Shown here piece by piece: positions 26,318-45,534 of a stretch of 57,334 nt of DNA. Numbering within the stretch: the stretch's first letter is position 1; each line of letters starts with the position of its first letter. Made by a program: the position numbers and the translations under genes. Where the stretch lies: contig JAYRXE010000010.1 of assembly GCA_041917695.1 (NCBI GenBank), positions 1 to 57,334 on the forward strand, given 5' to 3'. The notes below the pieces were generated by a model, which had not been told where the DNA came from, did not search any database, and saw only the letters and a program-made list of their open reading frames with translations. This DNA comes from Minisyncoccota bacterium. Lineage in GTDB: Bacteria > Patescibacteriota > Minisyncoccia > UBA6257 > GWB1-50-10.

Positions 26318-27991
26318 TTGAACCCGCGTCCGTCGATTTTCGACAAAGACCACTCTGAAAAAACCAAATACGCGCATTTTCGAAGCATGCTCAGACTTCG
26401 CCCATACCAGAACGAATGCGTCGGCGCCTGCCAGAAAAAATGGGAAGAAGGCTACGCGCGCCTGCTCGTCGCACTTGCGACCGGTTTGGGAAAAACGATC
26501 CTTTTTTCCGAAATTGCGAGTCAGCGGATTCGCAAAAACAACAAGGAACGAGTCCTGATTCTCGCCCATCTGGACGAACTCCTGACTCAGGCGACCGAAA
26601 AGATTCCCTTGGTCGATCCGAATCTCCAGTCGCACATCATCCGAAAAGGCCACATCGATCACTCGGCGCCGGTTCACCTCATCTCCGTCCAATCGGCCTC
26701 GACACCCCAAACGCTCGACCAGCTCCGAAAAGTCGGCTACGGCTTGGTGATTGTTGACGAGGCCCATCACACCCCGGCCGATGAATACCAGGTTGTCCTG
26801 GGGGAACTCGGATGTTTCTCTGGGCAAACCAAACTGCTCGGAGTGACCGCCACGCCGTTCAGGACCGACGACCGGGAACTCGACGAAACCTTCGAGGTGA
26901 CCGCCTACAAGAAAGGAATTCTGGAAGGGATCATCGAGGGGTACTTGGCCGACCTGAGAGGAATCGAGGTCCCCATCGATTGCGACCTCGGACAGTCGAG
27001 CGGGTCCGACTACAATGCCGGCAAACTCGGTCGCATTCTGAGAGGCGTGCTCCCGGAAGTCGCGCTCGATACGATCCAGCGATACGCCCCGAACCGGAAA
27101 ACCATCATCTTCGTTCCGACTATCGAGGTCGCCCGCGATGTCGCCGCGACACTGGTCGCCCACGGCATCTCAGCCGACCACGTTTCTGGCGAGGGTACCC
27201 CTACCGAACGTCGTCGAAAGATCGCCGACTACCGGGCCAATAAAATCCGGGTCCTCGTCAACGCAATGCTTTTGACTGAAGGCTTCGACGATCCCGAAAC
27301 CGATTGCGTGATCGTCGCCAGACCGACCCTGAGCAAGGGGCTCTATATTCAGATGATCGGCCGCGGCCTGCGTTTGTTTCCCGGCAAATCCGACTGCCTG
27401 GTCGTGGACCTCGTTCCTAAAGGCCACAAATCGCCGACGCTCACCTTGGCCGAGATGGCAAGGGTGACACCTGAAGAAGCCCGGAATCGGGGAATGCGCG
27501 CCCTCTACAAGAAAAAGAAGCAATCCGCCGATTCTCTCGGGAATCCCAAATGGGGAGATGGTCACGAGCGAAATCTTTTCGCGGATCTCAACTGGAGCCG
27601 CTTCGAGGGCGAGGTCTACGGGATACAGGTGGAAAAAACGTCGGTGGTCCTTTTCCCGGTGTCCGGGTTCGACCGCTACCATCCCCTGTACGATGTGTTC
27701 ATCCAGGAAGGCTCCCAAGGGCAGTTCCTTCATCGATCCCTTTCTCTCCCGTATTCCCAAGGAGTGGCCGAGGACCTGATTCGAGACCGAAATGCCTTTC
27801 AGCTCACAAAAACTCAGGCAGGATGGCGAGACCTACCAGTGACCGACTCGCAGTTTCAGGCCCTTCAAATCAACAAACTTCCCTTCCACAAAGACATGAC
27901 CCGCGGCGAGGCCTGTGACCTGATTCAGCAATCGAAACTCTCCCGAGTCGTTCAGGCGCTTCGTCGAAAAAGCCAGGAACAAGCCGCTTGA
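26318..27991 (+). CDS. superfamily-2 DEAD/DEAH-box helicase with a C-terminal extension
   Basis: Motif I ATGLGKT, motif II VDEAHH, motif III TATP, helicase-C region (MLLTEGFDDPE...ARPT...QMIGRGLR). The TTG start at 26318 lies at the predicted transcription start. ATG at 26387 is an alternative. Confidence 0.85.
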   Translation: MNPRPSIFDKDHSEKTKYAHFRSMLRLRPYQNECVGACQKKWEEGYARLLVALATGLGKTILFSEIASQRIRKNNKERVLILAHLDELLTQATEKIPLVDPNLQSHIIRKGHIDHSAPVHLISVQSASTPQTLDQLRKVGYGLVIVDEAHHTPADEYQVVLGELGCFSGQTKLLGVTATPFRTDDRELDETFEVTAYKKGILEGIIEGYLADLRGIEVPIDCDLGQSSGSDYNAGKLGRILRGVLPEVALDTIQRYAPNRKTIIFVPTIEVARDVAATLVAHGISADHVSGEGTPTERRRKIADYRANKIRVLVNAMLLTEGFDDPETDCVIVARPTLSKGLYIQMIGRGLRLFPGKSDCLVVDLVPKGHKSPTLTLAEMARVTPEEARNRGMRALYKKKKQSADSLGNPKWGDGHERNLFADLNWSRFEGEVYGIQVEKTSVVLFPVSGFDRYHPLYDVFIQEGSQGQFLHRSLSLPYSQGVAEDLIRDRNAFQLTKTQAGWRDLPVTDSQFQALQINKLPFHKDMTRGEACDLIQQSKLSRVVQALRRKSQEQAA

Positions 27992-28100
27992 CCCGAGATC
28001 TCAACCGACACGGATCCAACGGAAATTTTTTGTTTGCGGAAGTATTACTCGAACCTGTCTTTCCGATGACCAGGCGCGCGGCAAGCCTCGGCCTTCAGGC

Positions 28101-29602
28101 TTGTCTTTATCCACAGAATGTTCATTTACAAGGAGTGGGTCAAAGGTTGGTAGTCAGATGATTCAGGGGGTAATGGAGTGATGACCTTGGGTTTATCGGT
28201 TGAGGCGTGGTCGGAGCAGGAATTTTCGGGGTCGAGTTTCAGCGATGAGCGGATGAGTCGTCGGGCGGTGGCGATCGGTTCGGCGATGGCGCGTCATCCG
28301 GGGAATGGATTGGGTCAGATGTTTGGGCGGGTTTCGGAGGTTCGTGCGGCGTACCGGTTCGTGAATCATGCGGAAGCGACGCCGGAAACGATTCAGTACG
28401 GTCATCGGGAGCGGGTGTTTTCGGAGATGGGAACGGGTTGGTATTTGCTCCTGGAAGACACGAGCGAGATTTTGTGCAGTCGGGGCGAGGAGATCGAGGG
28501 GTTGGGACCGATTGGCGGGAGTCGGACGCGCAAGATCGGATTTTTGCTGCATACGACGTTGGCGGTCAGATGGGACGGGAGCGGGGCGGGGGTGCATCGT
28601 CGGGCGGTGGAGGTGGTTGGGATTGCGGATCAGTCGTACCGGATTCGCGAGCCGCAGCCCGGGCGTGGTCCGGATCGGGGTTCGCGTCGTCGGCAAGTCG
28701 GAAGCGGGGTGGAGTCCGGGGTCTGGGAGCAGACGTCGCATCGGCTGGGTCATCCGCCACCGGGAGCGCGATGGATCAAGGTGGGTGATCGTGGGGCGGA
28801 TATTTACGATCATTTGATGAGTTGCCGGGCGAACGGTCAGGATTTCGTGATTCGGGCGCAGGCGGATCGGGTGATTGAGGAGACCCCGGGGCGATTGTTT
28901 GTGGCGGCGCGGGCGACGGCGGCAAAGGACGAAACGAGTCGGTTGACGTTGCGTCGCCGCGGGCAAACACCGAAACGCACCGCACGGCTGTCGGTGAGCG
29001 TGACGGTGGTTCGGATTCAGTCGCCGCAGGTCGTCGGATTTCGCCGTGGGGCGCGTCCGGCACTCACGGTCACGCTGGTCCGGGCCTGGGAGGCCGATCC
29101 GCCACCGGGTGTGACGGCGCTGGAATGGATTTTGTTGACCAGTCTGCCGGTTGAGACGACGGCGCAGGCGTGGGAAATCGTTCGGATGTACGCGACCCGC
29201 TGGCTGGAGGAAGAATTTCACAAAGCCTTGAAAACCGGGCTTGGACTGGAGCGCCAGCAAATGGAAAGCGCCGCGGCGTGGTTTGCCGTGACGGCCCTGA
29301 TGAGCGTGGTCGCCGTACGTCTGATTGCGCTTCGGGAAGTGGTTCGCGCCGCGCCCGCCGCACCCGCCGATCAGTCCGGATTGACGCCAACCGAACAGGC
29401 GGTCTTGAGCCTGCGCGCCGAACGGCCATTGAAAACGGTCCGCGATGTCGCACTCGCGCTGGCACGACTTGGAGGTCATATGAACCGGGCCGGGGATGGT
29501 CTCCCCGGCTGGATCGTTCTCTGGCGCGGCTGGCAAGTACTCCAAAATCTGATCGAAGGGGTTCACATTGCCCGTAAATTGACTTTCTGTGGATAAAGAC
29601 AA
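28101..29602 (+). mobile_element. IS4-family (IS50/Tn5-like) insertion sequence, 1502 bp
   Basis: Perfect 16-bp terminal inverted repeats: TTGTCTTTATCCACAG at 28101-28116 and CTGTGGATAAAGACAA at 29587-29602. Flanked by the 10-bp direct repeat GCCTTCAGGC (28091-28100 and 29603-29612). Confidence 0.9.
28178..29596 (+). CDS. IS4-family DDE transposase (472 aa)
   Basis: Fills the IS. The stop lies inside the right IR. The N-terminus resembles the Tn5 transposase N-terminal domain (...AAYRFVNH...). Confidence 0.85.
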   Translation: MMTLGLSVEAWSEQEFSGSSFSDERMSRRAVAIGSAMARHPGNGLGQMFGRVSEVRAAYRFVNHAEATPETIQYGHRERVFSEMGTGWYLLLEDTSEILCSRGEEIEGLGPIGGSRTRKIGFLLHTTLAVRWDGSGAGVHRRAVEVVGIADQSYRIREPQPGRGPDRGSRRRQVGSGVESGVWEQTSHRLGHPPPGARWIKVGDRGADIYDHLMSCRANGQDFVIRAQADRVIEETPGRLFVAARATAAKDETSRLTLRRRGQTPKRTARLSVSVTVVRIQSPQVVGFRRGARPALTVTLVRAWEADPPPGVTALEWILLTSLPVETTAQAWEIVRMYATRWLEEEFHKALKTGLGLERQQMESAAAWFAVTALMSVVAVRLIALREVVRAAPAAPADQSGLTPTEQAVLSLRAERPLKTVRDVALALARLGGHMNRAGDGLPGWIVLWRGWQVLQNLIEGVHIARKLTFCG

Positions 29603-29654
29603 GCCTTCAGGCCGGGGAAGGATAGCGCGAACGCGGAAGGCGTCTTCCCGTGGA

Positions 29655-30092: not shown

Positions 30093-31331
30093 ATGAGACG
30101 ACTCCAAGCCTTCAAATTCGAACTGATGCCGACCGGAGATCAGAAGCGCCGGATGCGGCGTTGTGCCGGTTCGTGTCGGGTTGTGTTCAACGAGGCTTTG
30201 AGTTTGCGGAAAGCGTGTTCCGAGAATGGGGAAAAAATGCCCGGCTACGCGGAGTTGTGCCGGGAGCTGACGGCCTGGCGCAATGGCGCGCCGCTGCCAT
30301 CCGGGCGGGTTGCGCGCTGGCTTGGAGACGCGCCGGTGCATCCGCTCCAACAGAAACTCAAGGATCTGTTGCGGGCCTACGACAACTTCTTCGCCAAAAG
30401 GGCGGACTTCCCGCGCTTCAAGAAGAAGGGGCAGGGGGACAGCTTCAGGTATCCCGATCCCAAGCAGATCAAACTCGACTCCGCCAACAACCGGGTCTTC
30501 CTGCCCAAACTCGGCTGGCTGCGGTATCGGAACAGCCGCCCAGTGCCGGGCGAGTTAAAGCAGGTGACGGTATCCGCCATCGGCGACAAGTGGTTCGTCA
30601 GCATCCAGACCGAACGCGAGATTCCCGATCCTGTATTGAAGGCGACCAGCTCGGTAGGCATCGACCTTGGGATCGCCCGCTTCGCCACCCTGTCGGATGG
30701 CACGTTCCACTCCCCGCTCAACAGTTTCAAGCTGCACGAAGTCGCGCTCCGCAAGGCGCAACAGGCGTTGAGCCACAAAACAAAATTCAGCCACAACTGG
30801 AAGAAGGCCAAGGCCAGAGTTCGCACCCTTCATGCCCGAATTGCCAATGCTCGCCGCGACTACCTGCACAAAATCACGACCACCATCAGCCAAAATCACG
30901 CGATGGTGTGCATTGAGGATTTGCAGGTTCGGAACATGTCCCGTTCGGCGGCTGGAACGGCGGAAAATCCGGGCCGGAAGGTCAAAGCGAAATCAGGCCT
31001 GAACAAGGCCATCCTGGACCAGGGATGGTACGAGTTCCGCCGTCAGCTTGAGTACAAACTGGCGTGGCAGGGCGGGCGGCTGATTGCCGTCCCGCCAATG
31101 AACACGAGCCGCTCCTGTCCCCATTGCGGCCATGTGTCGGCGGACAACCGGCGCACGCAATCGCGGTTCGCGTGTGTCACATGCAAGTTCGAGGAACACG
31201 CCGACGTGGTCGGCGCGATCAACATTCTCAGGGCGGGACACGCCCGTTGCGCCTGTGAAGTGAGCGGTGCGGTAAGGCCGCCAGCAGCAGGAACCCACCG
31301 AAGCGACTCACCCGGCTCACTGCGGGAATGA
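30093..31331 (+). CDS. tnpB: TnpB (IS605 OrfB) RNA-guided nuclease family protein (412 aa)
   Basis: Internal Met MRRLQAFKFELMPT of ORF 29874..31331. RuvC residues read intact in GIDLGI, CIEDLQV and HADVVGAINI. Zinc finger CPHCG...CVTC. Confidence 0.85.
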   Translation: MRRLQAFKFELMPTGDQKRRMRRCAGSCRVVFNEALSLRKACSENGEKMPGYAELCRELTAWRNGAPLPSGRVARWLGDAPVHPLQQKLKDLLRAYDNFFAKRADFPRFKKKGQGDSFRYPDPKQIKLDSANNRVFLPKLGWLRYRNSRPVPGELKQVTVSAIGDKWFVSIQTEREIPDPVLKATSSVGIDLGIARFATLSDGTFHSPLNSFKLHEVALRKAQQALSHKTKFSHNWKKAKARVRTLHARIANARRDYLHKITTTISQNHAMVCIEDLQVRNMSRSAAGTAENPGRKVKAKSGLNKAILDQGWYEFRRQLEYKLAWQGGRLIAVPPMNTSRSCPHCGHVSADNRRTQSRFACVTCKFEEHADVVGAINILRAGHARCACEVSGAVRPPAAGTHRSDSPGSLRE

Positions 31332-31382: not shown

Positions 31383-31674
31383 TCAGGAAGCAGGTCAACA
31401 AGGGCAGTTCCTCCATCGATCCCTTTCCCTCCCTTATGCCCAAGGAGTGGCAGAGGATCTGATTTGAGACCGGAATGCCTTTCAGCTCACCACCACCCAA
31501 GCTGGATGGCGAGAACTCCCTGTAACCGATTCCCAGTTTCAGGCGCTTCAACTCAACAAACTTCCCTTCCACAAGGACATGACCCGTGGAGAGGCCTGCG
31601 ACCTGATTCAGCAATCAAAACTCTCCCGAGTCGTTCAGGCGCTTCGTCGAAAAAACCAGGAACGAGCTGCCTGA
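31383..31674 (+). pseudogene. diverged 3' fragment of a helicase paralogue (copy 2 of 27703-27991)
   Basis: High DNA identity (roughly 85-90% by eye) to the helicase 3' end. In-frame TGA where the helicase has CGA (..AEDLI*DRNA..). Starts right at the IS605 right end. Confidence 0.75.
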
Positions 31675-31675
31675 C

Positions 31676-32593
31676 TCAAAAGCTTCCGCCGAGGTTTTCC
31701 CACGATCCAATATGTCGATTCCAAAATCCAGAGAAGTGCCCATTTCTGATCAATCCATTCACCGGTGGCGACAAAAATTCGGAAATCTCTTTAACCACAA
31801 CTTCCAGCTCGACTGGTGTTTCCCGGATTTCTTCAAGATAGTGCATCCAGGGCTTTTGATTTTTTTGAGCGAACTCAATGGTCAATCCCGGTAGGTCAGC
31901 CGTCAAGCTGACCATCTCGCGTCGCTCAAAAGTTTTGAGAATAGCTAGAGACAGAAGTGCTCCATCAAAATCGTTTCCTTTCGCAAGAACCGAGATGTCG
32001 CGATAGTCCTTCAGTCTGGAATTAAGCATACCCCGGTCAGTCATCGCGTGGAGTTTCTCGGCGATTACGGCTTCCTTGGGATACACCTGAAAGAATGGCC
32101 TTGGCATACCTGCCAGCGATGGAATTTCAACCTTTTTCGGTGTAGGAAAAACGGCGTCTCCGATACCAATGTCTATTTGAAGAGGAATTATGGCGTTTTC
32201 CAGCCTAGCTCGGATACGAACTCGAATCCCCCCATATTTCTGATCTTCTCGAATTGGCCCCACCCCGAATTCCGATTCGAAAATCAAACCGTCCGAGATA
32301 TCGACACCAGTGGCAAGAGTGACGATTTCACGAACCGAATCCTCTGAAAGCGCGCCGAACCCAAGCAGATCAAGGTCACTGGTTGGGCGAAAGCCGGATT
32401 CCTCCCACACTACGAACAACATCGCCCCTTTCAGGACGAACCGGTCCGAGAATCCCGCAAGTTCAAGGCGTTTCAGAAAACGTTCGTAGGCATACCTGCG
32501 AAGAATCCGGTCAAAATTCACCCCAGTGGAACGATATTCGTTCATCAACTTTGCACGGATCGAGGCCGCCGGATTCGTGATTGGCCTTTTCAT
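31676..32593 (-). CDS. abiEii: AbiEii/AbiGii-family nucleotidyltransferase toxin
   Basis: 305 aa. Typical N-terminus (IRAKLMNEYRSTGVNFDRILRRYAYERFLKRL...FVLKGAMLF...SDLDLLG). 4-nt overlap with the upstream antitoxin gene. Confidence 0.85.
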   Translation of the reverse strand: MKRPITNPAASIRAKLMNEYRSTGVNFDRILRRYAYERFLKRLELAGFSDRFVLKGAMLFVVWEESGFRPTSDLDLLGFGALSEDSVREIVTLATGVDISDGLIFESEFGVGPIREDQKYGGIRVRIRARLENAIIPLQIDIGIGDAVFPTPKKVEIPSLAGMPRPFFQVYPKEAVIAEKLHAMTDRGMLNSRLKDYRDISVLAKGNDFDGALLSLAILKTFERREMVSLTADLPGLTIEFAQKNQKPWMHYLEEIRETPVELEVVVKEISEFLSPPVNGLIRNGHFSGFWNRHIGSWENLGGSF

Positions 32594-33204: not shown

Positions 33205-33299
33205 TTCCTTTATACTGAGGTTTAATTATAGATAAAACGTAACAAAAATGCACGCATGTCACGCATTTTAGGTCGCTAAATATTCTTTATTCCCACAAG

Positions 33300-33365
33300 G
33301 GCTTCGTCGAAAAAGCCAGGAACGGGCTGCCTGATCCCAAACCTCAACCGACACGGTTTCAAAGC
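33300..33365 (+). repeat. third copy of the helicase 3' end plus its downstream tail (66 nt)
   Basis: GCTTCGTCGAAAAAGCCAGGAACGGGCTGCCTGATCCCAAACCTCAACCGACACGG matches 27959-28016. Its first 33 nt also match 31642-31674. Confidence 0.8.
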
Positions 33366-33495
33366 CAACCTTTTCAGTTCCGGAGCTATTGCCCGACCCT
33401 CTTTGCTCGATGACAACCGGCCTCGAGAAAAAAATTTCGAGGCCTCGCCAAAAACGGCGCGGCAAATGGGAATGACCAGAGCGTACGAACCGGCA

Positions 33496-38525: not shown

Positions 38526-39407
38526 ATGCCGATTCTCGTCGTTATCGCGCTGATGGCCATTCTTATCGGAATTCTTTCTCCGGTTTCGGAACAGACCGTC
38601 CAAACCACCCGTCAGGCCTATCTGGATCAGGCCGTGACCGAAAACAACGAATTCGCCGACAATGCGTCGGTGAACCTTCGTCAATTCAAGATCAATACCG
38701 TGGTTGGCGATATCCAGCGGGATCCGTCCTCGAGCGCCAAAAGCCTTCAGGGGATGCAGTTGGTCCAGTTCAGAATCTACGGGAACCCTTCTTACGTTTC
38801 GTCCTTGGGGAACTATACGGCCTGGCCGGTTCCCGCGACCGAGATGCAGAAATTCATGGATGAAGCGATGGGAACGGTCCCGAACTTCCTTGTGCGCGAG
38901 CAGCCGGTATTCGTCGGAAACTTCACCGTTCAGAGGTGGTCGATCCGGATCGACAAAGTGCGCTTCACCGAGTGGACGCTCGTCGATCAGTCCTGGCTCG
39001 ACGCAAAATTCGGCCCCGCCGGTTCCGGCTACTCGCGATGGGTTGCTCGCGTGGACATCGAGACGACCGAAACGTTCTGGAAGGATCAGGTTGGCCTCGA
39101 CGGCAAACCCTTCGATCAGGTCGGAACGGACCCCTGCAACAAATGCACCAGTCCGACCGCCCCGACCCGGGGCGTTTCACGCGCGGCAACTGCGTTCAAA
39201 CGTTCCTTCGAAATTCCCGTTTGTTTCGGGCTTCCGGGAGTCGCCTCACCGAAGCCTTGTAACGATCCGGCCTTTTCATTCGTTACACCCCTCGGTGTCT
39301 CCGGCAATGCCTGTAGTCCGCCCGATTGCCGAAACCACATCGTTGGTGGCGAGAACGGATGCGCCCCACCTGGATTTAATTACTCGTTTCAACTCGTCCA
39401 ACAATGA
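38526..39407 (+). CDS. pilin-like protein with a truncated leader (293 aa)
   Basis: Begins directly with the hydrophobic helix MPILVVIALMAILIGILSP. The upstream in-frame sequence back to the stop at 38463 has no G-x-x-x-x-E cleavage motif. Confidence 0.55.
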   Translation: MPILVVIALMAILIGILSPVSEQTVQTTRQAYLDQAVTENNEFADNASVNLRQFKINTVVGDIQRDPSSSAKSLQGMQLVQFRIYGNPSYVSSLGNYTAWPVPATEMQKFMDEAMGTVPNFLVREQPVFVGNFTVQRWSIRIDKVRFTEWTLVDQSWLDAKFGPAGSGYSRWVARVDIETTETFWKDQVGLDGKPFDQVGTDPCNKCTSPTAPTRGVSRAATAFKRSFEIPVCFGLPGVASPKPCNDPAFSFVTPLGVSGNACSPPDCRNHIVGGENGCAPPGFNYSFQLVQQ

Positions 39408-39455
39408 CAAAGGGCCGGGTTTTCCCGGCCCTTTCCCTCAACAAGTTAAACGGAA

Positions 39456-40979
39456 TCAATATTGGGAAATCGAGATCCGCGCGCCGTTGATGACGACGGT
39501 TCCGATTCTTGTCGGCTGACCTTTTCCAATCGGTGAAACGGTTACGGTCACAACTCCGGTCGTGTAGTTCACTTGCGGCGTCATCCAGGAATCGAGCGAG
39601 TAGACCTGCCAGTCGTTTGACGGCGTACCTTGAATCGAGAACGTCACCGCTCCGCCGGTGGCCGGCACTACCCTCGAACTCGAATTCAGGATCGTAACCG
39701 TGGATTCCGCGGATGAAAGGATGCAAGCACCCGAAAACGATTGAAGATTTTGATTGATTCCGTTGACCGTTTTCCAACAGAACTTGGTGGCCAAGGTATC
39801 CCCTAAAATTGGCACCTGGCCGATGAACACATCAAGAATGTTGGAAGAACAATCAGGATCACCAACAACTACACCGCTATTTAAATCCATTTGCAATGTG
39901 GTTAAAGAACTCAGGTTGTTCAACGTTGCAAACGGCCCAAAGAGGTTCGGATTTCCTTCTCTGGCTATAAAACCTTGGTTGGACAAACAGGAAGCACTGC
40001 TACTCACACCCGAATCGGTTTCGGGCAGATAGGTCTTCCCGGTCAGCATCATGACGAAAGCACGCTGTGGGGTTGGCCGATTCACCCAGTCGCCAGCAAG
40101 TTGTCCCAATAGATCGATACTGCTTTGCCCAGTGTAGACCTGCGGCAGCGTGTCACGCACGACTTGCCCGGAAACTCGCAGCCGGAGACCGACGCCTTGC
40201 TGAAAAAACGGTTCGTACGTGTTGATAAACGAGAGAATCCGCGCATTCGCCGCGCTCGCGCTCCCCTGGTTCTGGACGTACTCGAAGTCCGCGTCGGTGA
40301 CGATTTTGACCGTTTTCTGGGCAATCGTCCGGTTCACGATCGGAACCCAAGGTACGTTTGCCGGATCGACCGGCGCCCGACCAGCTCCCTTCGCATTCAC
40401 ACCGCCGACCAGCTTTTCCGGAAGCGTCGTTCCGCAGGTAGCGCAGGAAGGCCGATCCGTTTTCGAAATGACCACCGTTCCGACCCTGGCCGAAACACCA
40501 TTGGTCTCGATCCGGTCCACTTTTACCGTATCGATCACAAATGCGCCCGTCGGCGTGGCGATCACCCCACCCAGGTAATTTTCGTCCACGTACATCCGGA
40601 CTTCGCTTCCGTCCATGCCTTCCACGGTTCCCCGGTAGGTTCGGCACGGGCCCTTACCAAGCGGAATCAGCTTCCCGCCCTGGGCGGAATAGGTCTGAAA
40701 ATCGGCCGTCCGGATCTCGTTCGGGACGAGCGACACGACGCGGCTGGCGGAATCCAGGGGAAGGGCAATCCGTCCGGTCACCAGGACTTCCTTCGAATAG
40801 GACCCCAGGTCAATTCGCGAAGTCGTCCGCGGTTCGAGAGCCGCTTTCTTTGCCGGCAGCCGGTAGTTGAAGCTTTTCATTTCCGGAGTGGCGCCCTTGT
40901 CGGCCGACACCGCCAAGATATTCACCGCCGACACCGCCAGAATTCCGACAGCAATCAAAAAAATTCGCACGTTCGTCAT
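39456..40979 (-). CDS. secreted protein with reprolysin (M12B)-like N-terminal layout but no HExxH
   Basis: ORF 39456..41006. The Met at 40979 has GAGG upstream and opens a signal peptide. CRTYRGTVEGMDGSEVRMYVDENYLGGVI resembles reprolysin-family pro/catalytic-domain starts. No His-containing zinc motif follows. Confidence 0.6.
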   Translation of the reverse strand: MTNVRIFLIAVGILAVSAVNILAVSADKGATPEMKSFNYRLPAKKAALEPRTTSRIDLGSYSKEVLVTGRIALPLDSASRVVSLVPNEIRTADFQTYSAQGGKLIPLGKGPCRTYRGTVEGMDGSEVRMYVDENYLGGVIATPTGAFVIDTVKVDRIETNGVSARVGTVVISKTDRPSCATCGTTLPEKLVGGVNAKGAGRAPVDPANVPWVPIVNRTIAQKTVKIVTDADFEYVQNQGSASAANARILSFINTYEPFFQQGVGLRLRVSGQVVRDTLPQVYTGQSSIDLLGQLAGDWVNRPTPQRAFVMMLTGKTYLPETDSGVSSSASCLSNQGFIAREGNPNLFGPFATLNNLSSLTTLQMDLNSGVVVGDPDCSSNILDVFIGQVPILGDTLATKFCWKTVNGINQNLQSFSGACILSSAESTVTILNSSSRVVPATGGAVTFSIQGTPSNDWQVYSLDSWMTPQVNYTTGVVTVTVSPIGKGQPTRIGTVVINGARISISQY

Positions 40980-41075
40980 ATACGCCTCACCGAAATTCAT
41001 ATTCACCCGTTGCTATCTTTTCCGAAAAAATCGTCCGAACGGTTTTCTTGTTTTTCAAAAATCACCCAAATCAAA

Positions 41076-41262
41076 ACTTCCCAACGAGCGGGATTTTCAA
41101 CGCTCATTGCAGTTAGTCAAATTTCGGAACAAAGAAATTTTTAAGCCTGGCCAAGAATTCAAACTCCAAACCATAGCCTGAAACCGAAATCCTTTGCAGA
41201 ACTTTTTGTTTCTCACGGGAAAGTCCAGTTCAGCCAATACAAAACTCCAATACCTGTGGGCC
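41076..41262 (+). repeat. 187-bp direct repeat, copy R1 (about 85% identical to R2)
   Basis: ACTTCCCAACGAGCGGGATTTTCAACGCTC...CCTGTGGGCC. Contains AGTCAAATTTCGGAAC (41115-41130) and an internal hairpin. Confidence 0.8.
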
Positions 41263-41312
41263 GACTGGTCAATTACCGAATCCAGGGGAAGGGCAATCCG
41301 CCCGGTCTGCTA

Positions 41313-42653
41313 TCAAGAAAGTGCGCGTAAGTGCTCACGGTTCTTTTCCTGCCCCGACGTGTCCTGGTGACCACATTCGTATCTGACAGGCGTGACTTTC
41401 CCGTCAGTGACGGAAACAATTTCCGTCACCGCGCCGCCGTTGCCGGTCGGACTCGCCACGGGTAGGGCGGTTGCGGTTGCCAGCCGTTGCAGGTTGAGCG
41501 CCGCGTTGAAGTCGCGGTCGTGGATCGTGCCGCATTGCGGACACCTCCATTCCCGATCTTTCAGCTTCAAAGCTTCGTTCTTCCAGCCACACACCGAACA
41601 CAGGCGGGTGCTCGGATACCAACGGTCAGCGATGACCAATCTTGTGCCGAACCGTTTTGCCTTGTATTCAATTTGCGAGCGAAACATCCCGAATCCCACG
41701 TCGCTGATGGCGCGGGCGAGCTTGTCGTTCGCCAGCATGCCTTTGACGTGCAAGTCTTCGACCACCACCGCTTGGTTTTTACGGCAGAGTCGAGTCGTGA
41801 GCTTGTGGGTGAAATCCGCCCGGATATTGGCAATACGCGCATGCAGTCTTGCCAATGTCGCTGAGGACTTCTTCCGGTTATTGGAAACCGGCAGTCGCGT
41901 CCCCTTGGGAAGCCGGGCTCCCGGCGAAAACCCGGCTTCCAGCTTTGCCGCCTCGGTCTTGCGACTGACGCAACGACTCCGAAGTTTCAGACGGCGCAGC
42001 ACGGCCTTGAGCGGCTTTGGCGACTGGATCGCTTCGCCACTGGAGAGAGTGGCGGCCGATTTCACGCCAAGATCGACACCGGTCACGCCATCCCCGGTCC
42101 TGGCCTTTTGGAACTGTGTGTCTCGCACCTCGACCTGAATCGCCACAAACCATCGATGCGCCGTGCGTGAAACCGTCGCGCCGAGAATCTTTCCCTCGAA
42201 GCGCAATGCCTCGGTCATGGCGACTTCACCTATTTTCGGCAGGCGGATCGCTTTGTCCGAGACGCTGAATTTGTCGTTCGCCACATAGAAACTGTCCCGA
42301 CAACGGCCCTTCTTCTTGAATTGTGGTTCGTGCGCCGGTTTCCCGTTCCGGATGTCGGCAAAGAACCGACTCCACGCCTTGGCCAGGTAGGCGAAGGGCT
42401 GTGCGTGGGCGTCCCGGTGAATCCCCCGCAACCACGGCTGGCCGTTTTCGTCGAGCCATTCCGGGTCGTGGTACTTGATGGCATTGAATTCTTTCTTGAG
42501 CGCCATCGCATCGGGTTTTTGCCCGCTCGCGTATTGCCTGTTCCACTCGGCCAGCGCCCAGTTCCAGACCCTTCTCGCGGTGCCGCAAGCGCGAGTGAAA
42601 TAATCGGCCTGTTCCGGTGTCGGGCAAAGGGCAATTTTGTGAGTCAGTTGCAT
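41313..42653 (-). CDS. tnpB: solo TnpB (IS605 OrfB/IS1341-type) RNA-guided nuclease family protein (446 aa)
   Basis: RuvC residues read intact in GVDLGV, VVVEDLHV and HDRDFNAALNL. Zinc finger CSVCG...CPQCG. No tnpA adjacent. Confidence 0.85.
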   Translation of the reverse strand: MQLTHKIALCPTPEQADYFTRACGTARRVWNWALAEWNRQYASGQKPDAMALKKEFNAIKYHDPEWLDENGQPWLRGIHRDAHAQPFAYLAKAWSRFFADIRNGKPAHEPQFKKKGRCRDSFYVANDKFSVSDKAIRLPKIGEVAMTEALRFEGKILGATVSRTAHRWFVAIQVEVRDTQFQKARTGDGVTGVDLGVKSAATLSSGEAIQSPKPLKAVLRRLKLRSRCVSRKTEAAKLEAGFSPGARLPKGTRLPVSNNRKKSSATLARLHARIANIRADFTHKLTTRLCRKNQAVVVEDLHVKGMLANDKLARAISDVGFGMFRSQIEYKAKRFGTRLVIADRWYPSTRLCSVCGWKNEALKLKDREWRCPQCGTIHDRDFNAALNLQRLATATALPVASPTGNGGAVTEIVSVTDGKVTPVRYECGHQDTSGQEKNREHLRALS

Positions 42654-42797
42654 TGACTGGCCTTTTCAATCGCCAACTTCGTCAATCCGCGCGCAAGAAT
42701 CCTGCGTGCGCAAATGACCGATGCAGCCGTTTCGGCGTCCGGCCACTAATCCCGTTACCCCCAGAACCATCCGGCGGCGTTTATTTCAACGACGCGG

Positions 42798-42984
42798 ACT
42801 TTCCCGACGAGCGGGATTTTCAACGCTCGCTTCGTTTAGTCAAATTTCGGAACAAAGATTTTTTTTGCCTGGCCAGGAATCCAAACTCAAAAACATAGCC
42901 TGAAGCGGAAACCCCTTGCAGGACTTTTTGTTTTTCAACGAAAAGTCCAGTTCAGGAAGTACAAAACTCCATTACCTGTGGGCC
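42798..42984 (+). repeat. 187-bp direct repeat, copy R2
   Basis: ACTTTCCCGACGAGCGGGATTTTCAACGCTC...CCTGTGGGCC. Contains AGTCAAATTTCGGAAC (42838-42853) and the hairpin GGACTTTT-N12-AAAAGTCC. Confidence 0.8.
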
Positions 42985-42989
42985 ACCTG

Positions 42990-43172
42990 ATGAACGACAA
43001 GGAAATCCGCGCCGCACTGATCCAAAAAATTTGTCGAGAAAATTTTTCGAATCCGGACGCTCTGCTCGTCGAGGAACTCGGGCTGTGCGAAGGGAAGTCT
43101 CACTTGGACCCCCTCCTCTTCACCGACCGCGGTGACCACCAAGGCTGCCACTGCATGAAACTATTGGGGTGA
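42990..43172 (+). pseudogene. N-terminal fragment of an sce7726-family gene
   Basis: MNDKEIRAALIQKICRENFSNPDALLVEELGLCEG matches the N-terminal pattern of sce7726-family proteins as I recall it. The frame then degenerates, stops after 60 aa and runs into the convergent TPR gene. Confidence 0.45.
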
Positions 43173-45233
43173 TTGTTTCATGAGTTTTCGTACTCGCTCC
43201 AAATTCTTTGAAACAGCCATCGTGCTGGGGTGTTCCTTCCCAAGCATCTTTTCCCTAATCGCCAGCGAACGGACAAACAATGGTTCGGCTTTCGCATATG
43301 CCCCCTGGACTTGATAAAGCAATGCCAGATTGTTCAGGCAGGTCGCGACGAAAGGGTGTCCCGGCCCGAGCGACTTTTCACCTATCGCCAACGACCTGAC
43401 AAGCAACGGTTCTGCTTTCGCGTATTCCTTTTGGACTTCGTAAAGCGTTGCCAGATTGTTCAAGGCAGTCGCGACGAAAGGGTTCCACGGCCCGAGCACT
43501 TTTTCACTTATCGCCAGTGATCGGGCAAACAACGGCTCGGCTTTCTCATATGCCCCTTGGTCTTCAAAAAGCAACGCCAGATTGTTCAAGCAGGTCGCGA
43601 CGAAAGGGTGTTCCGGCCCGAAAGTCTTTTCTCCTATCGCCAATGACCTAACAAATAACGGCTCGGATTCCACATATGCCCTTTGGACTCGGTACAGCGT
43701 CGCCAGATTGTTCAGCGCAGCCGCGACGTCGGGATGTTCCTGCCCGAGTGTCTTTTCCTTTATCGCCAGCGAACGGACAAACAACGGCTCGGCTTTCGAG
43801 TAGGCCCCCTGATCACAATAAAGCAATGCCAGATTGTTCAGGCAGGTCGCGACGTCGGGATGTTCCTGCCCGAGCGACTTTTCGATTATCGCCAAAGAAC
43901 GAACAAACAACGGCTCAGCTTTCCCGTATGCCCCTTGGGCCGTGTAAAGCAATGCCAGATTGCCCAAAGCAATTGCGACGTCGGGGTGTGCTAGCCCGAA
44001 GGCCTTTTCCCTTATCTCCAAAGAACGGACAAACAACGGCTCAGCTTTCCCGTATGCCCCTTGGGCCTTGTAAAGCAATGCCAAGTTGTTCAGAGAAGTC
44101 CCGACGAAGGAGTGTTCTGCCCCAAGTGCCTTTTCCCTTATCGCCAACGACCTGACAAGCAACGGCTCGACTTTCGCATATTCCCCTTGGGCTTTATAGA
44201 GACACGCCAGATTGTTCTGGGCAGTCGCGACGTCGGGGTGCTCCGGTCCAAGTGCCTTTTCTCTTATCGCCAACGACCTGACAAGCAACGGTTCGGCTTT
44301 CACGTACTCCCCCTGGGCTTGGTAAAGCAACGCCAGATTGTTCAGGGATGTCGCAAAATCAGGATTCTCAACGCCAAATTTCTTCTCTTTAATTTCAAGC
44401 GCTTTTACAAGGAACAGCTTTGCTTCCTCAAACTTTGCCAGAACCAACAATGTCACCCCGTATTTGTTCAGTATTATCTCGTCCTCTGGGCGACGATCCG
44501 CAGCTTCCTGGTAAGCAACTGATGCTTCCAAATACTTGCCCTGCGCATATCTTGCCTGACCAAGGCCAAATGCCGCCTCCGCTGTTTTCAACTTCGCTTG
44601 TGCTTCTTCTTTTCTTCGAACTTCGAACGATTCTTCAAACCCAAGCTCTGCCTCCCGATATCTTTCCAGATACAGATTACCCAAAGCTTTATCAAAGGGA
44701 TCCTTTGCAACGGCGGCCCAAGCCCGGATGGCCTGATCAATTTCATTTTTCGGTAGGTCGTAGTATTTCGCGGTTTCCTCTAATGTGATTTCAATCTCAC
44801 GACTACGAAGGCTTTCCTCCCGTGCGGCAATTGCCTTTGTTGTCGCACGTTGCACCATCGCCCGCAAAACGTTCGGGTCTTTGAGCAAAGCAAGATCACC
44901 CCGCTTCGCCAATACGATCTTTTTATCTCGTGAGCCAAGTTCGATCACACCGTCCCACGGTGAAACAAATACCCAACCCGAAGGTTTGATGATTTCCAGA
45001 CTCACCCAGCCGCTTCCGAATGCTTCACTTGAAGGATGAACGGCTAACTGTCCCGAACGTGTCGTTGTTTGCCGACAACCAGCACCATTGGCCGGGCAGA
45101 GAATAAAACCAGCCAGCGCCGAGCCTTTCGTATCTTGAACCTGAACCAGAACGGCTCTCTGCGGCCCTTGCGCCAAAGCCGGTGAAGTTATGATTAGAAA
45201 CAAAAAACCAAAAAACAGGCTGGATTTTCTCAT
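43161..45233 (-). CDS. secreted tetratricopeptide-repeat protein (kinesin-light-chain-type TPRs)
   Basis: ORF 43161..45326. The Met at 45233 (GGGAGG upstream) opens a signal peptide (MRKSSLFFGFLFLIITSPALAQG). About nine consecutive 42-aa units follow (LNNLALLYxxQGxYxKAEPLxVRSLAIxEKxLGxEHPxVA). Confidence 0.85.
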   Translation of the reverse strand: MRKSSLFFGFLFLIITSPALAQGPQRAVLVQVQDTKGSALAGFILCPANGAGCRQTTTRSGQLAVHPSSEAFGSGWVSLEIIKPSGWVFVSPWDGVIELGSRDKKIVLAKRGDLALLKDPNVLRAMVQRATTKAIAAREESLRSREIEITLEETAKYYDLPKNEIDQAIRAWAAVAKDPFDKALGNLYLERYREAELGFEESFEVRRKEEAQAKLKTAEAAFGLGQARYAQGKYLEASVAYQEAADRRPEDEIILNKYGVTLLVLAKFEEAKLFLVKALEIKEKKFGVENPDFATSLNNLALLYQAQGEYVKAEPLLVRSLAIREKALGPEHPDVATAQNNLACLYKAQGEYAKVEPLLVRSLAIREKALGAEHSFVGTSLNNLALLYKAQGAYGKAEPLFVRSLEIREKAFGLAHPDVAIALGNLALLYTAQGAYGKAEPLFVRSLAIIEKSLGQEHPDVATCLNNLALLYCDQGAYSKAEPLFVRSLAIKEKTLGQEHPDVAAALNNLATLYRVQRAYVESEPLFVRSLAIGEKTFGPEHPFVATCLNNLALLFEDQGAYEKAEPLFARSLAISEKVLGPWNPFVATALNNLATLYEVQKEYAKAEPLLVRSLAIGEKSLGPGHPFVATCLNNLALLYQVQGAYAKAEPLFVRSLAIREKMLGKEHPSTMAVSKNLERVRKLMKQSPQ

Positions 45234-45534
45234 AAATATTCGACCTCCCTGGGTCACCCTTGGTTGTGTAGGTTTCCGTGTGAAATCAATCGAGATTCCT
45301 ACTTGAGGGGCGGAGACTGGTTTCACTTGGCAACACCAACCAAACCCTTTTTAGGATGCCCTTTTGCACTCGCAAATTATCCATTCAGAGGCATGCGTTG
45401 ATTTTCACCTCGGTGACTGGCCGTGAAGGGGGGGGGCGATAACTAAAACCCAGATACACGATAACGGACGGAATTCTTGGGAGACTTTTGGGAGAGGTTG
45501 AAATCACCAGGATAGCCCGGATTTCGGGTCGAAG

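Follow-up and report, generated by a model that had tools for sequence, protein, structure and literature searches.

A probable relic of an insertion site in the guide position of a truncated IS607-type TnpB element from a Minisyncoccota bacterium

The main finding of this study is that a 30-nt sequence just past the stop codon of a tnpB gene, which nearly repeats a stretch of the neighbouring gene P0002, is very probably a relic of the DNA into which a transposon of the IS607 family inserted. Since TnpB takes its guide from the flank of the element's right end, this relic sits exactly where the guide would be read. The window, by which we mean the whole stretch of DNA that was analysed (57,334 nt, all positions being counted from its first letter), had earlier been read from its letters alone, and the original prediction offered two explanations of the repeat, a footprint of insertion into a paralogous copy or a natural self- or neighbour-targeting guide. 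Our results favour the footprint, but the copy that received the transposon appears to have been a local duplicate of about 528 nt and not the independent paralog on contig C33. The second explanation fares less well, because a check of the TAM gave GGAG for the family against GGTG in the gene, together with a mismatch at guide position 6, and a working neighbour-targeting guide is, by analogy with tested relatives, not supported.

The repeat, the right end and the element

The sequence GAATCCAGGGGAAGGGCAATCCGCCCGGTC (41278-41307) and positions 40750-40779 agree at 29 of 30 bases in direct orientation. This match, with its start 5 nt past the tnpB stop (41313-41315), had been noticed before and is borne out here, since a second match appeared in 0 of 100 dinucleotide-preserving shuffles and BLAST found no further copy of the 30-mer in the 1.24-Mb genome. 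The sole mismatch (41301 C versus 40773 T, that is GGG versus GGA on the minus, coding strand) is a synonymous glycine change in the frame of the neighbouring ORF. For the 30-mer taken alone it is true that similarity stops at both of its edges, but a direct repeat of about 195 nt begins right at its end.

The right end of the element was defined by a scan of reference genomes, which gave 80 loci with TnpBs 54-83% identical to that of the window. In about 60 of these loci nucleotide similarity to the window element stops at own-coordinate 1994-1996, and these homologous elements, the window copy included, all end in ...TTGATAGCAG and then diverge. A conserved right end, ...TTCTTGA[T/G/A]AGCAG, of the kind that characterizes IS607 elements, is thus common to about 60 of them. 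The genomes of Chloroflexus sp. MS-G and of a betaproteobacterial MAG carry several copies, all of which end in ...TTCTTGA TAGCAG with divergence straight after, and a sister copy from run X7 (93% similar) loses similarity exactly at 41307. As far as homology can define an end, these alignments show that the window element ends at 41307, so that the position of about 41308-41312 predicted earlier was essentially correct. The flank therefore starts at 41306, where it reads ACCGGGCGGATTGCCCTTCC... on the minus strand, and 41306-41277 is the guide position. The assignment of the 30-mer to the guide rather than to the scaffold likewise stands, because the right end does not lie well past 41278 and the X7 sister copy diverges at 41307. 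Base 41307 of the 30-mer (G on the minus strand) is the final base of the right end (...TAGCAG) and not flank; the flank copy proper, 41306-41278, matches the window gene at 28 of 29 bases, and against the contig of a related strain, L089, it runs one base longer, to 41277, with 29 of 30 bases matching. The resulting 30-nt flank, called T' below, is identical to the window gene at 28 of its 30 positions and, judged from these alignments, is a relic of codons 77-86 of P0002. Guides of TnpB (OMEGA) systems are about 16-20 nt long.

The element had been labelled IS1341-type, a label that its full-length relatives contradict. These carry a left end (GGAG[G/C]N..ACTCTAG), a tnpA encoding a MerR-HTH/serine recombinase, and tnpB, a plan which by comparison of sequences makes the element IS607-type rather than IS1341/IS605. 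In the betaproteobacterial subtype only, an extra ORF of 110 aa lies between tnpA and tnpB. The left end and tnpA are absent from the window copy (tnpA is present in the L028 element), so this copy cannot move, and on present alignments it is a 5'-truncated IS607 derivative and not an autonomous member of the family. The left truncation point, at about 42799, falls inside the small ORF and abuts the upstream repeat copy R_B without filler; the window copy would derive from the betaproteobacterial subtype. Copies of the family number at least 14 in the betaproteobacterial MAG (L028-L040, L055; 99.5-99.9% identical) and at least about 15 in Chloroflexus sp. MS-G (L021-L048; 92-96% identical).

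The tnpB gene itself is intact and its product has the length found in mobile relatives. As in a TnpB nuclease, the RuvC D/E/D triad and the CxxC...CxxC zinc finger are preserved (GVDLG, VVVEDL, HDRDFNAA, CSVCG...CPQCG), and in the 115 columns that are invariant in 31 relatives the window TnpB has a single unique change, a conservative I-to-L, while mobile relatives have 0-4. Such an undecayed tnpB in an immobile element fits either a recent truncation or selection. The fold of the last 240 nt or so of the element is conserved as well: an RNAalifold alignment of 26 sequences yields a consensus of 55 pairs, of which 17 show compensatory changes, with 8-14 double changes at each pair of one stem. 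This covariation supports the structured guide-RNA scaffold expected of a TnpB element, in which the window copy has four non-canonical pairs versus 0-2 in close relatives. The region 40700-43300 gave no Rfam match at E <= 1, and the scaffold is therefore not a RAGATH-18-derived reRNA; the TnpB of the window has 446 aa versus about 390 aa in the RAGATH-18 group.

Table 1. Features of the TnpB locus, compared sites, and helicase copies at the second TnpB locus
Feature	Position	Strand	Remarks
P0002, secreted protein, function not assigned	39456..41006	-	likely start ATG at 40979
Living site in P0002	40749..40782	-	TAM position 40782-40779 GGTG; protospacer 40778-40749 ACCGGACGG...GGATTCC
R_A, downstream repeat copy, native upstream region of P0002	41075..41276	-	starts where T' stops
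T', 30-nt right-end flank, omegaRNA guide position	41277..41306	-	reads ACCGGGCGGATTGCCCTTCCCCTGGATTCG; about 60 homologous elements lose similarity at 41307
Right end and omegaRNA scaffold	41307..41545	-	overlaps tnpB 3' end; finishes ...TTCTTGATAGCAG
tnpB, 446 aa, intact	41313..42653	-	Pfam HTH_OrfB_IS605, OrfB_IS605 and Cas12f1-like_TNB above cutoff
Decayed 3' remnant of small ORF, about 45 codons	42654..42799	-	in-frame TAA and TAG; from alignment to L028
R_B, upstream copy of the intergenic segment of about 195 nt	42800..42994	-	fused directly to truncated IS
U', 5' part of gene U, truncated; U (191 aa) is complete in L089	42991..43172	+	homology to L089 ends at about 43099
Window gene site			5' flank CTGGTG; ACCGGACGG...GGATTCC
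L089 site			5' flank CTTGAG; ACTGGGCGG...GGATTCG
T' site			5' flank TAGCAG; ACCGGGCGG...GGATTCG
Helicase gene, intact 3' end	27716-28001
Helicase relic copy, 88% identical	31399-31684		its start lies at most about 24 nt from where homology of the second element ceases to be detectable

Target motif, undisturbed locus and probable insertion history

The target motif of the family was read from a Chloroflexus insertion (L026) for which two sister Chloroflexus genomes have the empty site (L102 and L103). The empty sites read flank-GGAG-flank and the occupied one flank-GGAG[CCGG...TAGC AG]flank. The comparison places GGAG in the target, makes AG the repeated core, and lets the guide-matching DNA begin right after it; as far as junction sequences reveal it, GGAG is thereby shown to be the target or TAM of the family. 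The core dinucleotide typical of IS607 was thus found in relatives, and the left junction of the window copy is deleted. All 48 of 48 left-end junctions also carry GGAG, with A favoured at -5, but the search pattern itself required GGAG and this count is circular, so that the empty sites are the independent evidence. An empty-site search in Massilia gave a best match spanning only 447 of 500 flank bases. At its right end the window element carries GCAG, one base (position -3) off GGAG, and by analogy with the family we infer that GGAG also stood at the insertion site in the window. The published CboIS607 system, with the TAM TGGG and the right end TCGG, likewise discriminates at position -3.

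The neighbouring gene had been described as reprolysin-like, a name that rests on sub-threshold Pfam matches only (Reprolysin_4/5 at E = 0.02-0.03), and nothing in Pfam scores above threshold for P0002. Neither an ortholog of P0002 nor a close TnpB (>35% identity) was found among 40 relatives of the genome, so these gave no empty site, and a metagenome scan with P0002 found no relative. A protein-database search and Logan contigs led to L089, whose P0003 is a 95%-identical ortholog of the P0002 protein and whose contig aligns to the window along 5.5 kb at 93% identity. There the locus is undisturbed: a gene U of 191 aa, a single intergenic segment R, the leader and the gene follow one another, and no IS is present.

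In the window, the segment R occurs twice as a direct repeat of about 195 nt, about 85% identical, which brackets the whole element; the single R of L089 aligns both with R_B, next to U, and with R_A, next to the gene. BLAST of the genome found no third copy of the repeat and no further copies of the element, so the repeat is neither a dispersed family nor a transposon end. A plus-strand scaffold and guide RNA formed by the repeat and the 30-mer was also considered and is rejected, because the repeat is ordinary intergenic DNA that is single in L089. Both copies contain an identical promoter-like sequence, TTGACT-16-GAAAAT, on the minus strand, identified by its match to the consensus only, at 41120-41093 in R_A, where it faces P0002, and at 42843-42816 in R_B, where it faces tnpB. 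Since the R_B site now points at the truncated IS, it may drive tnpB.

The junctions of the locus were compared with contigs from four other datasets over 39400-43400. A metatranscriptome contig from X3 covers 41217-42865, and hence R_B, the IS, T' and R_A, with zero differences, although such a contig shows neither RNA ends, strand nor RNA nature, and an X5 contig bridges 41091-41608 with one difference. The neighbouring gene, as far as 40963, lies on a second metatranscriptome contig, and 40964-41216 is a gap in the RNA run; neither this gap nor the contig ends can be taken for transcript ends. No contig of these four datasets joins R_B to R_A without the IS. As independent contigs bridge the junctions, these are not assembly artefacts, and the X3 contig is a weak sign that transcription of tnpB runs on through T'.

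The order of the window is U', R_B, the truncated IS (tnpB, omegaRNA and right end), T', R_A, the leader and the intact P0002 (codons 1-76, the living site T, and the rest). T and T' are spaced by 528 nt, which equals R plus the leader plus codons 1-86, and the homology between R_A and R_B stops where the IS remnant starts. The duplicate is thus a partial copy, of about 528 nt, of the segment, the leader and the first 86 codons of P0002. Three events, a duplication, an insertion and a deletion, would explain all the junctions. From an ancestral locus arranged as in L089, with U, one R of about 195 nt, the leader and P0002, a second R with leader and codons 1-86 (period 528 nt) would have come to lie upstream of an intact P0002, through tandem duplication or, alternatively, one-sided homologous repair from a foreign allele. 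The IS607 element would have sat in the upstream copy at GGAG/ACC..., between codons 76 and 77. A later deletion would have removed its left end, tnpA and most of the small ORF along with the leader and codons 1-76 of the upstream copy, and fused R_B to the interior of the IS. Any omegaRNA made from this locus would then carry, as its guide, the ancestral sequence of the P0002 site. A paralog on contig C33 (59% amino acid identity) was considered as the insertion target and rejected; its flank reads GGGC, 3 of the first 16 nt are mismatched, and its DNA is much more diverged at the site, so it is not the source of T'.

The comparison of the three sites is consistent with this history. T' has 0 unique changes, the window gene 2 (+6 and +30) and L089 1 (+3), all of them synonymous third-position changes. 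The living site and T' therefore disagree at +6 and +30 of the guide, and the flank of the living site departs from the family TAM at -2. L089 keeps AG at -2/-1 (TGAG) and the window gene keeps GG at -4/-3 (GGTG), so that an ancestral CTG GAG/ACC GGG, a GGAG site, would lie one step from each of them.

The probable order of these events is less constrained. Within 206 columns, R_A has 15 unique changes, R_B 20 and the R of L089 15, which puts the three at much the same distance from one another; on these numbers the duplication need not postdate the strain split, and no order of events is imposed. In R_A the unique changes crowd into the half on the side of U, in R_B into the half on the side of the gene, and these fast halves have 13-14% unique changes. 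This pattern fits a weaker constraint on that half of each copy whose neighbouring gene was lost, it fits a duplication as old as the strain split that later collapsed in L089, and it fits one-sided recombination with a foreign allele that repaired the IS-disrupted gene. In favour of the last of these, R_A and the gene are 93% identical to L089, versus 88% for U and R_B. T' has 0 unique changes in 30 nt versus 15-20 in 206 for R_A and R_B, and the probability of 0 changes at equal neutral rates is roughly 0.015-0.1, so that a neutral relic as old as the R_A/R_B split would be mildly unexpected. The unchanged T' and the undecayed tnpB fit a recent IS and truncation, or selection.

Possible effects of the guide on P0002

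Tested TnpBs of the ISFba1-type IS607 group recognize the TAM AGGAG; any single TAM mutation abolishes their cleavage, and a single mismatch at positions 1-13 abolishes or strongly impairs it. By analogy with these enzymes, GGTG together with the mismatch at +6 implies that P0002 should not be cut. Elsewhere in the genome the first 16 nt of the guide find no near-match, all other sites having at least 2 mismatches, and none of the closer remaining guide-like sites has a GGAG flank.

Past conflict between the TnpB and the gene beside it is conceivable but rather improbable. In this variant of the insertion history, an immobilised, active TnpB-omegaRNA, locked on the ancestral sequence of P0002, would have cut cells or incoming alleles with GGAG and a matching seed, so that only P0002 with a changed TAM (GAG to GTG, Glu to Val) and a changed seed (+6) persisted. 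The state of the element speaks for it, since tnpB has no unique damaging changes and the scaffold is largely intact, but for its non-canonical pairs. The metatranscriptome contig that runs over tnpB and the right end into T' and 60 nt past it, next to the uncovered 40964-41216, would agree with an expressed guide, but RNA contigs prove neither transcription nor processing. Both of the differences that are relevant to targeting are unique to the window gene, and over the TAM and the 12-nt seed the window and L089 have 4 differences, a divergence reached by only the top 5-7% of 16-nt windows; this enrichment, however, is weak and post hoc. In addition, the IS-free L089 also differs at -4 and +3, either because an IS was there in the past or because the site is simply variable, and the residue before the site varies in the family (V, E, A, G). 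T' is unusually unchanged, as conflict would have it, and there is a published precedent in fliC_P beside TldR, where mutations in TAM and seed preclude self-targeting.

A bolder proposal, and an unlikely one, is that an immobilised but fully active IS607 TnpB has been kept because its fixed guide polices one P0002 allele. If this were true, the TnpB would cut chromosomes or incoming DNA that carry P0002 with the ancestral GGAG and a matching seed; it would have driven the Glu-to-Val change in the TAM and the synonymous seed changes, and it would keep recombination from restoring the ancestral allele. Domestication of TnpB in this way, with an active nuclease that discriminates between alleles, would differ from the nuclease-dead route of the TldRs, and the second TnpB locus (27.7-31.7 kb) might be another case.

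It is very improbable that the locus encodes a domesticated regulator, in which TnpB with the T' guide would bind inside P0002 without cutting and tune its expression in the manner of TldR. The intact tnpB in an immobile element, the conservation of T', the adjacent gene as the guide's only near-match in the genome, and a guide that would pair with the template strand of P0002 could all be read in this way. TldRs, however, are defined by RuvC decay, and here the protein keeps both its RuvC D/E/D triad and its zinc finger; GGTG is not the cognate TAM (GGAG) and the seed is mismatched, the target lies in the coding region and not at a promoter, the guide-target pair is conserved in no other genome, and the duplication fully accounts for the origin of the match. 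Chance similarity or mis-assembly has only the shortness of the match in its favour and is negligible against the shuffles, the register of the match with the 528-nt duplication, and the contigs of other datasets that bridge the junctions.

Known systems and a second TnpB locus

The reading we prefer, a relic of an insertion site in the guide position, places the locus closest to the IS607 homing systems, that is the CboIS607 IStron and the ISFba1-type elements. It shares with them the tnpA/tnpB plan in its full-length relatives, a right end that templates the guide RNA, a guide consisting of the DNA just outside that end, and a motif whose closing core dinucleotide recurs at the right end. 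The distinction of self from non-self would fall at -3 (GGAG versus GCAG here, TGGG versus TCGG in CboIS607), and the family TAM GGAG resembles the published AGGAG of the ISFba1 type. The window copy differs from these systems in that it lacks the left end and tnpA and is immobile, in that its scaffold lies almost wholly within the tnpB frame and ends 6 nt past the stop, and in that it is not a RAGATH-18 RNA. It also differs in that the sequence of the policed empty site survives in cis, 528 nt off, through the local duplication.

Self-targeting CRISPR spacers, which are tolerated through PAM or seed mutations, offer a second comparison. In both cases a guide matches its own chromosome and the target carries changes in motif and seed, but the guide here is a transposon flank and was not acquired by an adaptation machinery. 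TldRs, defined in the literature by mutated or lost RuvC catalytic residues or by C-terminal truncation, provide a third. As with them, a TnpB-type protein stands outside a transposase context with a guide matching a nearby host gene, and the TAM and seed differences of the adjacent copy would prevent self-targeting, much as the mutations of fliC_P do according to the TldR paper. Unlike TldRs, the protein of the window keeps its RuvC triad and zinc finger, and the match lies inside the coding region, at codons 77-86, next to a non-cognate GGTG and with the +6 mismatch; the guide-target pair is not conserved across genomes, and the match is explained by the insertion history.

For annotation, these results suggest that when the right-end flank of a TnpB element matches a nearby gene, insertion history combined with local duplication should be suspected first, and not a programmed target. 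The locus allowed a clean test of this kind, as the TAM (GGAG) could be taken from empty sites of the family and the undisturbed arrangement from a related strain. It may also serve as a natural experiment, in which an empty donor site persists in cis and differs in both TAM and seed, either of which abolishes cleavage in tested IS607 TnpBs. If the changes were selected, the locus would illustrate in nature how a gene escapes TnpB self-targeting and how an immobile, active TnpB can shape a neighbouring gene.

A second tnpB, at about 30111-31244 on the plus strand, has the same layout as the first, with a helicase gene, whose intact 3' end lies upstream of the element, and its relic copy in the places of P0002 and T' (Table 1). 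The genome holds no sister copies of the 3' end of this second element, so its right end can be placed only within about 24 nt. The same layout at two TnpB elements of this small genome suggests that insertions into genes survive here mainly when a gene-restoring duplicate is present, or that TnpB-linked breaks promote duplications. A third partial copy of the helicase (33296-33374) lies beyond an AbiE-like gene pair, and between the helicase end and the second tnpB there is a separate insertion sequence (28086-29617) with 44-nt terminal inverted repeats (86% complementary) and an ORF of 472 aa.

Several minor observations concern the genome and the surroundings of the locus. The genome (G000) has 1.24 Mb at 98% completeness, while its 40 relatives have 0.5-1.4 Mb, most of them 0.5-0.8 Mb, with 0.6 Mb in the same genus. 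That neither P0002 nor a close homolog of the TnpB was found in the 40 relatives suggests recently gained, rearrangement-prone DNA. In L089 a different TnpB, of 358 aa, is inserted at L089:3691-4767; the corresponding DNA of our genome, G000:C35:13239-13974, is contiguous there, with the junction at C35:13685, which gives an occupied/empty pair. Contig C35 also carries another 5' fragment of U, of 79% amino acid identity (G000:C35:21602-21744). After the truncation of U' at about 43099 there follows a TPR-repeat gene (43161-45326, minus strand), in which positions 43227-44408 form eight tandem units of 126 nt that are 71-78% identical and represent ordinary TPR coding repeats.
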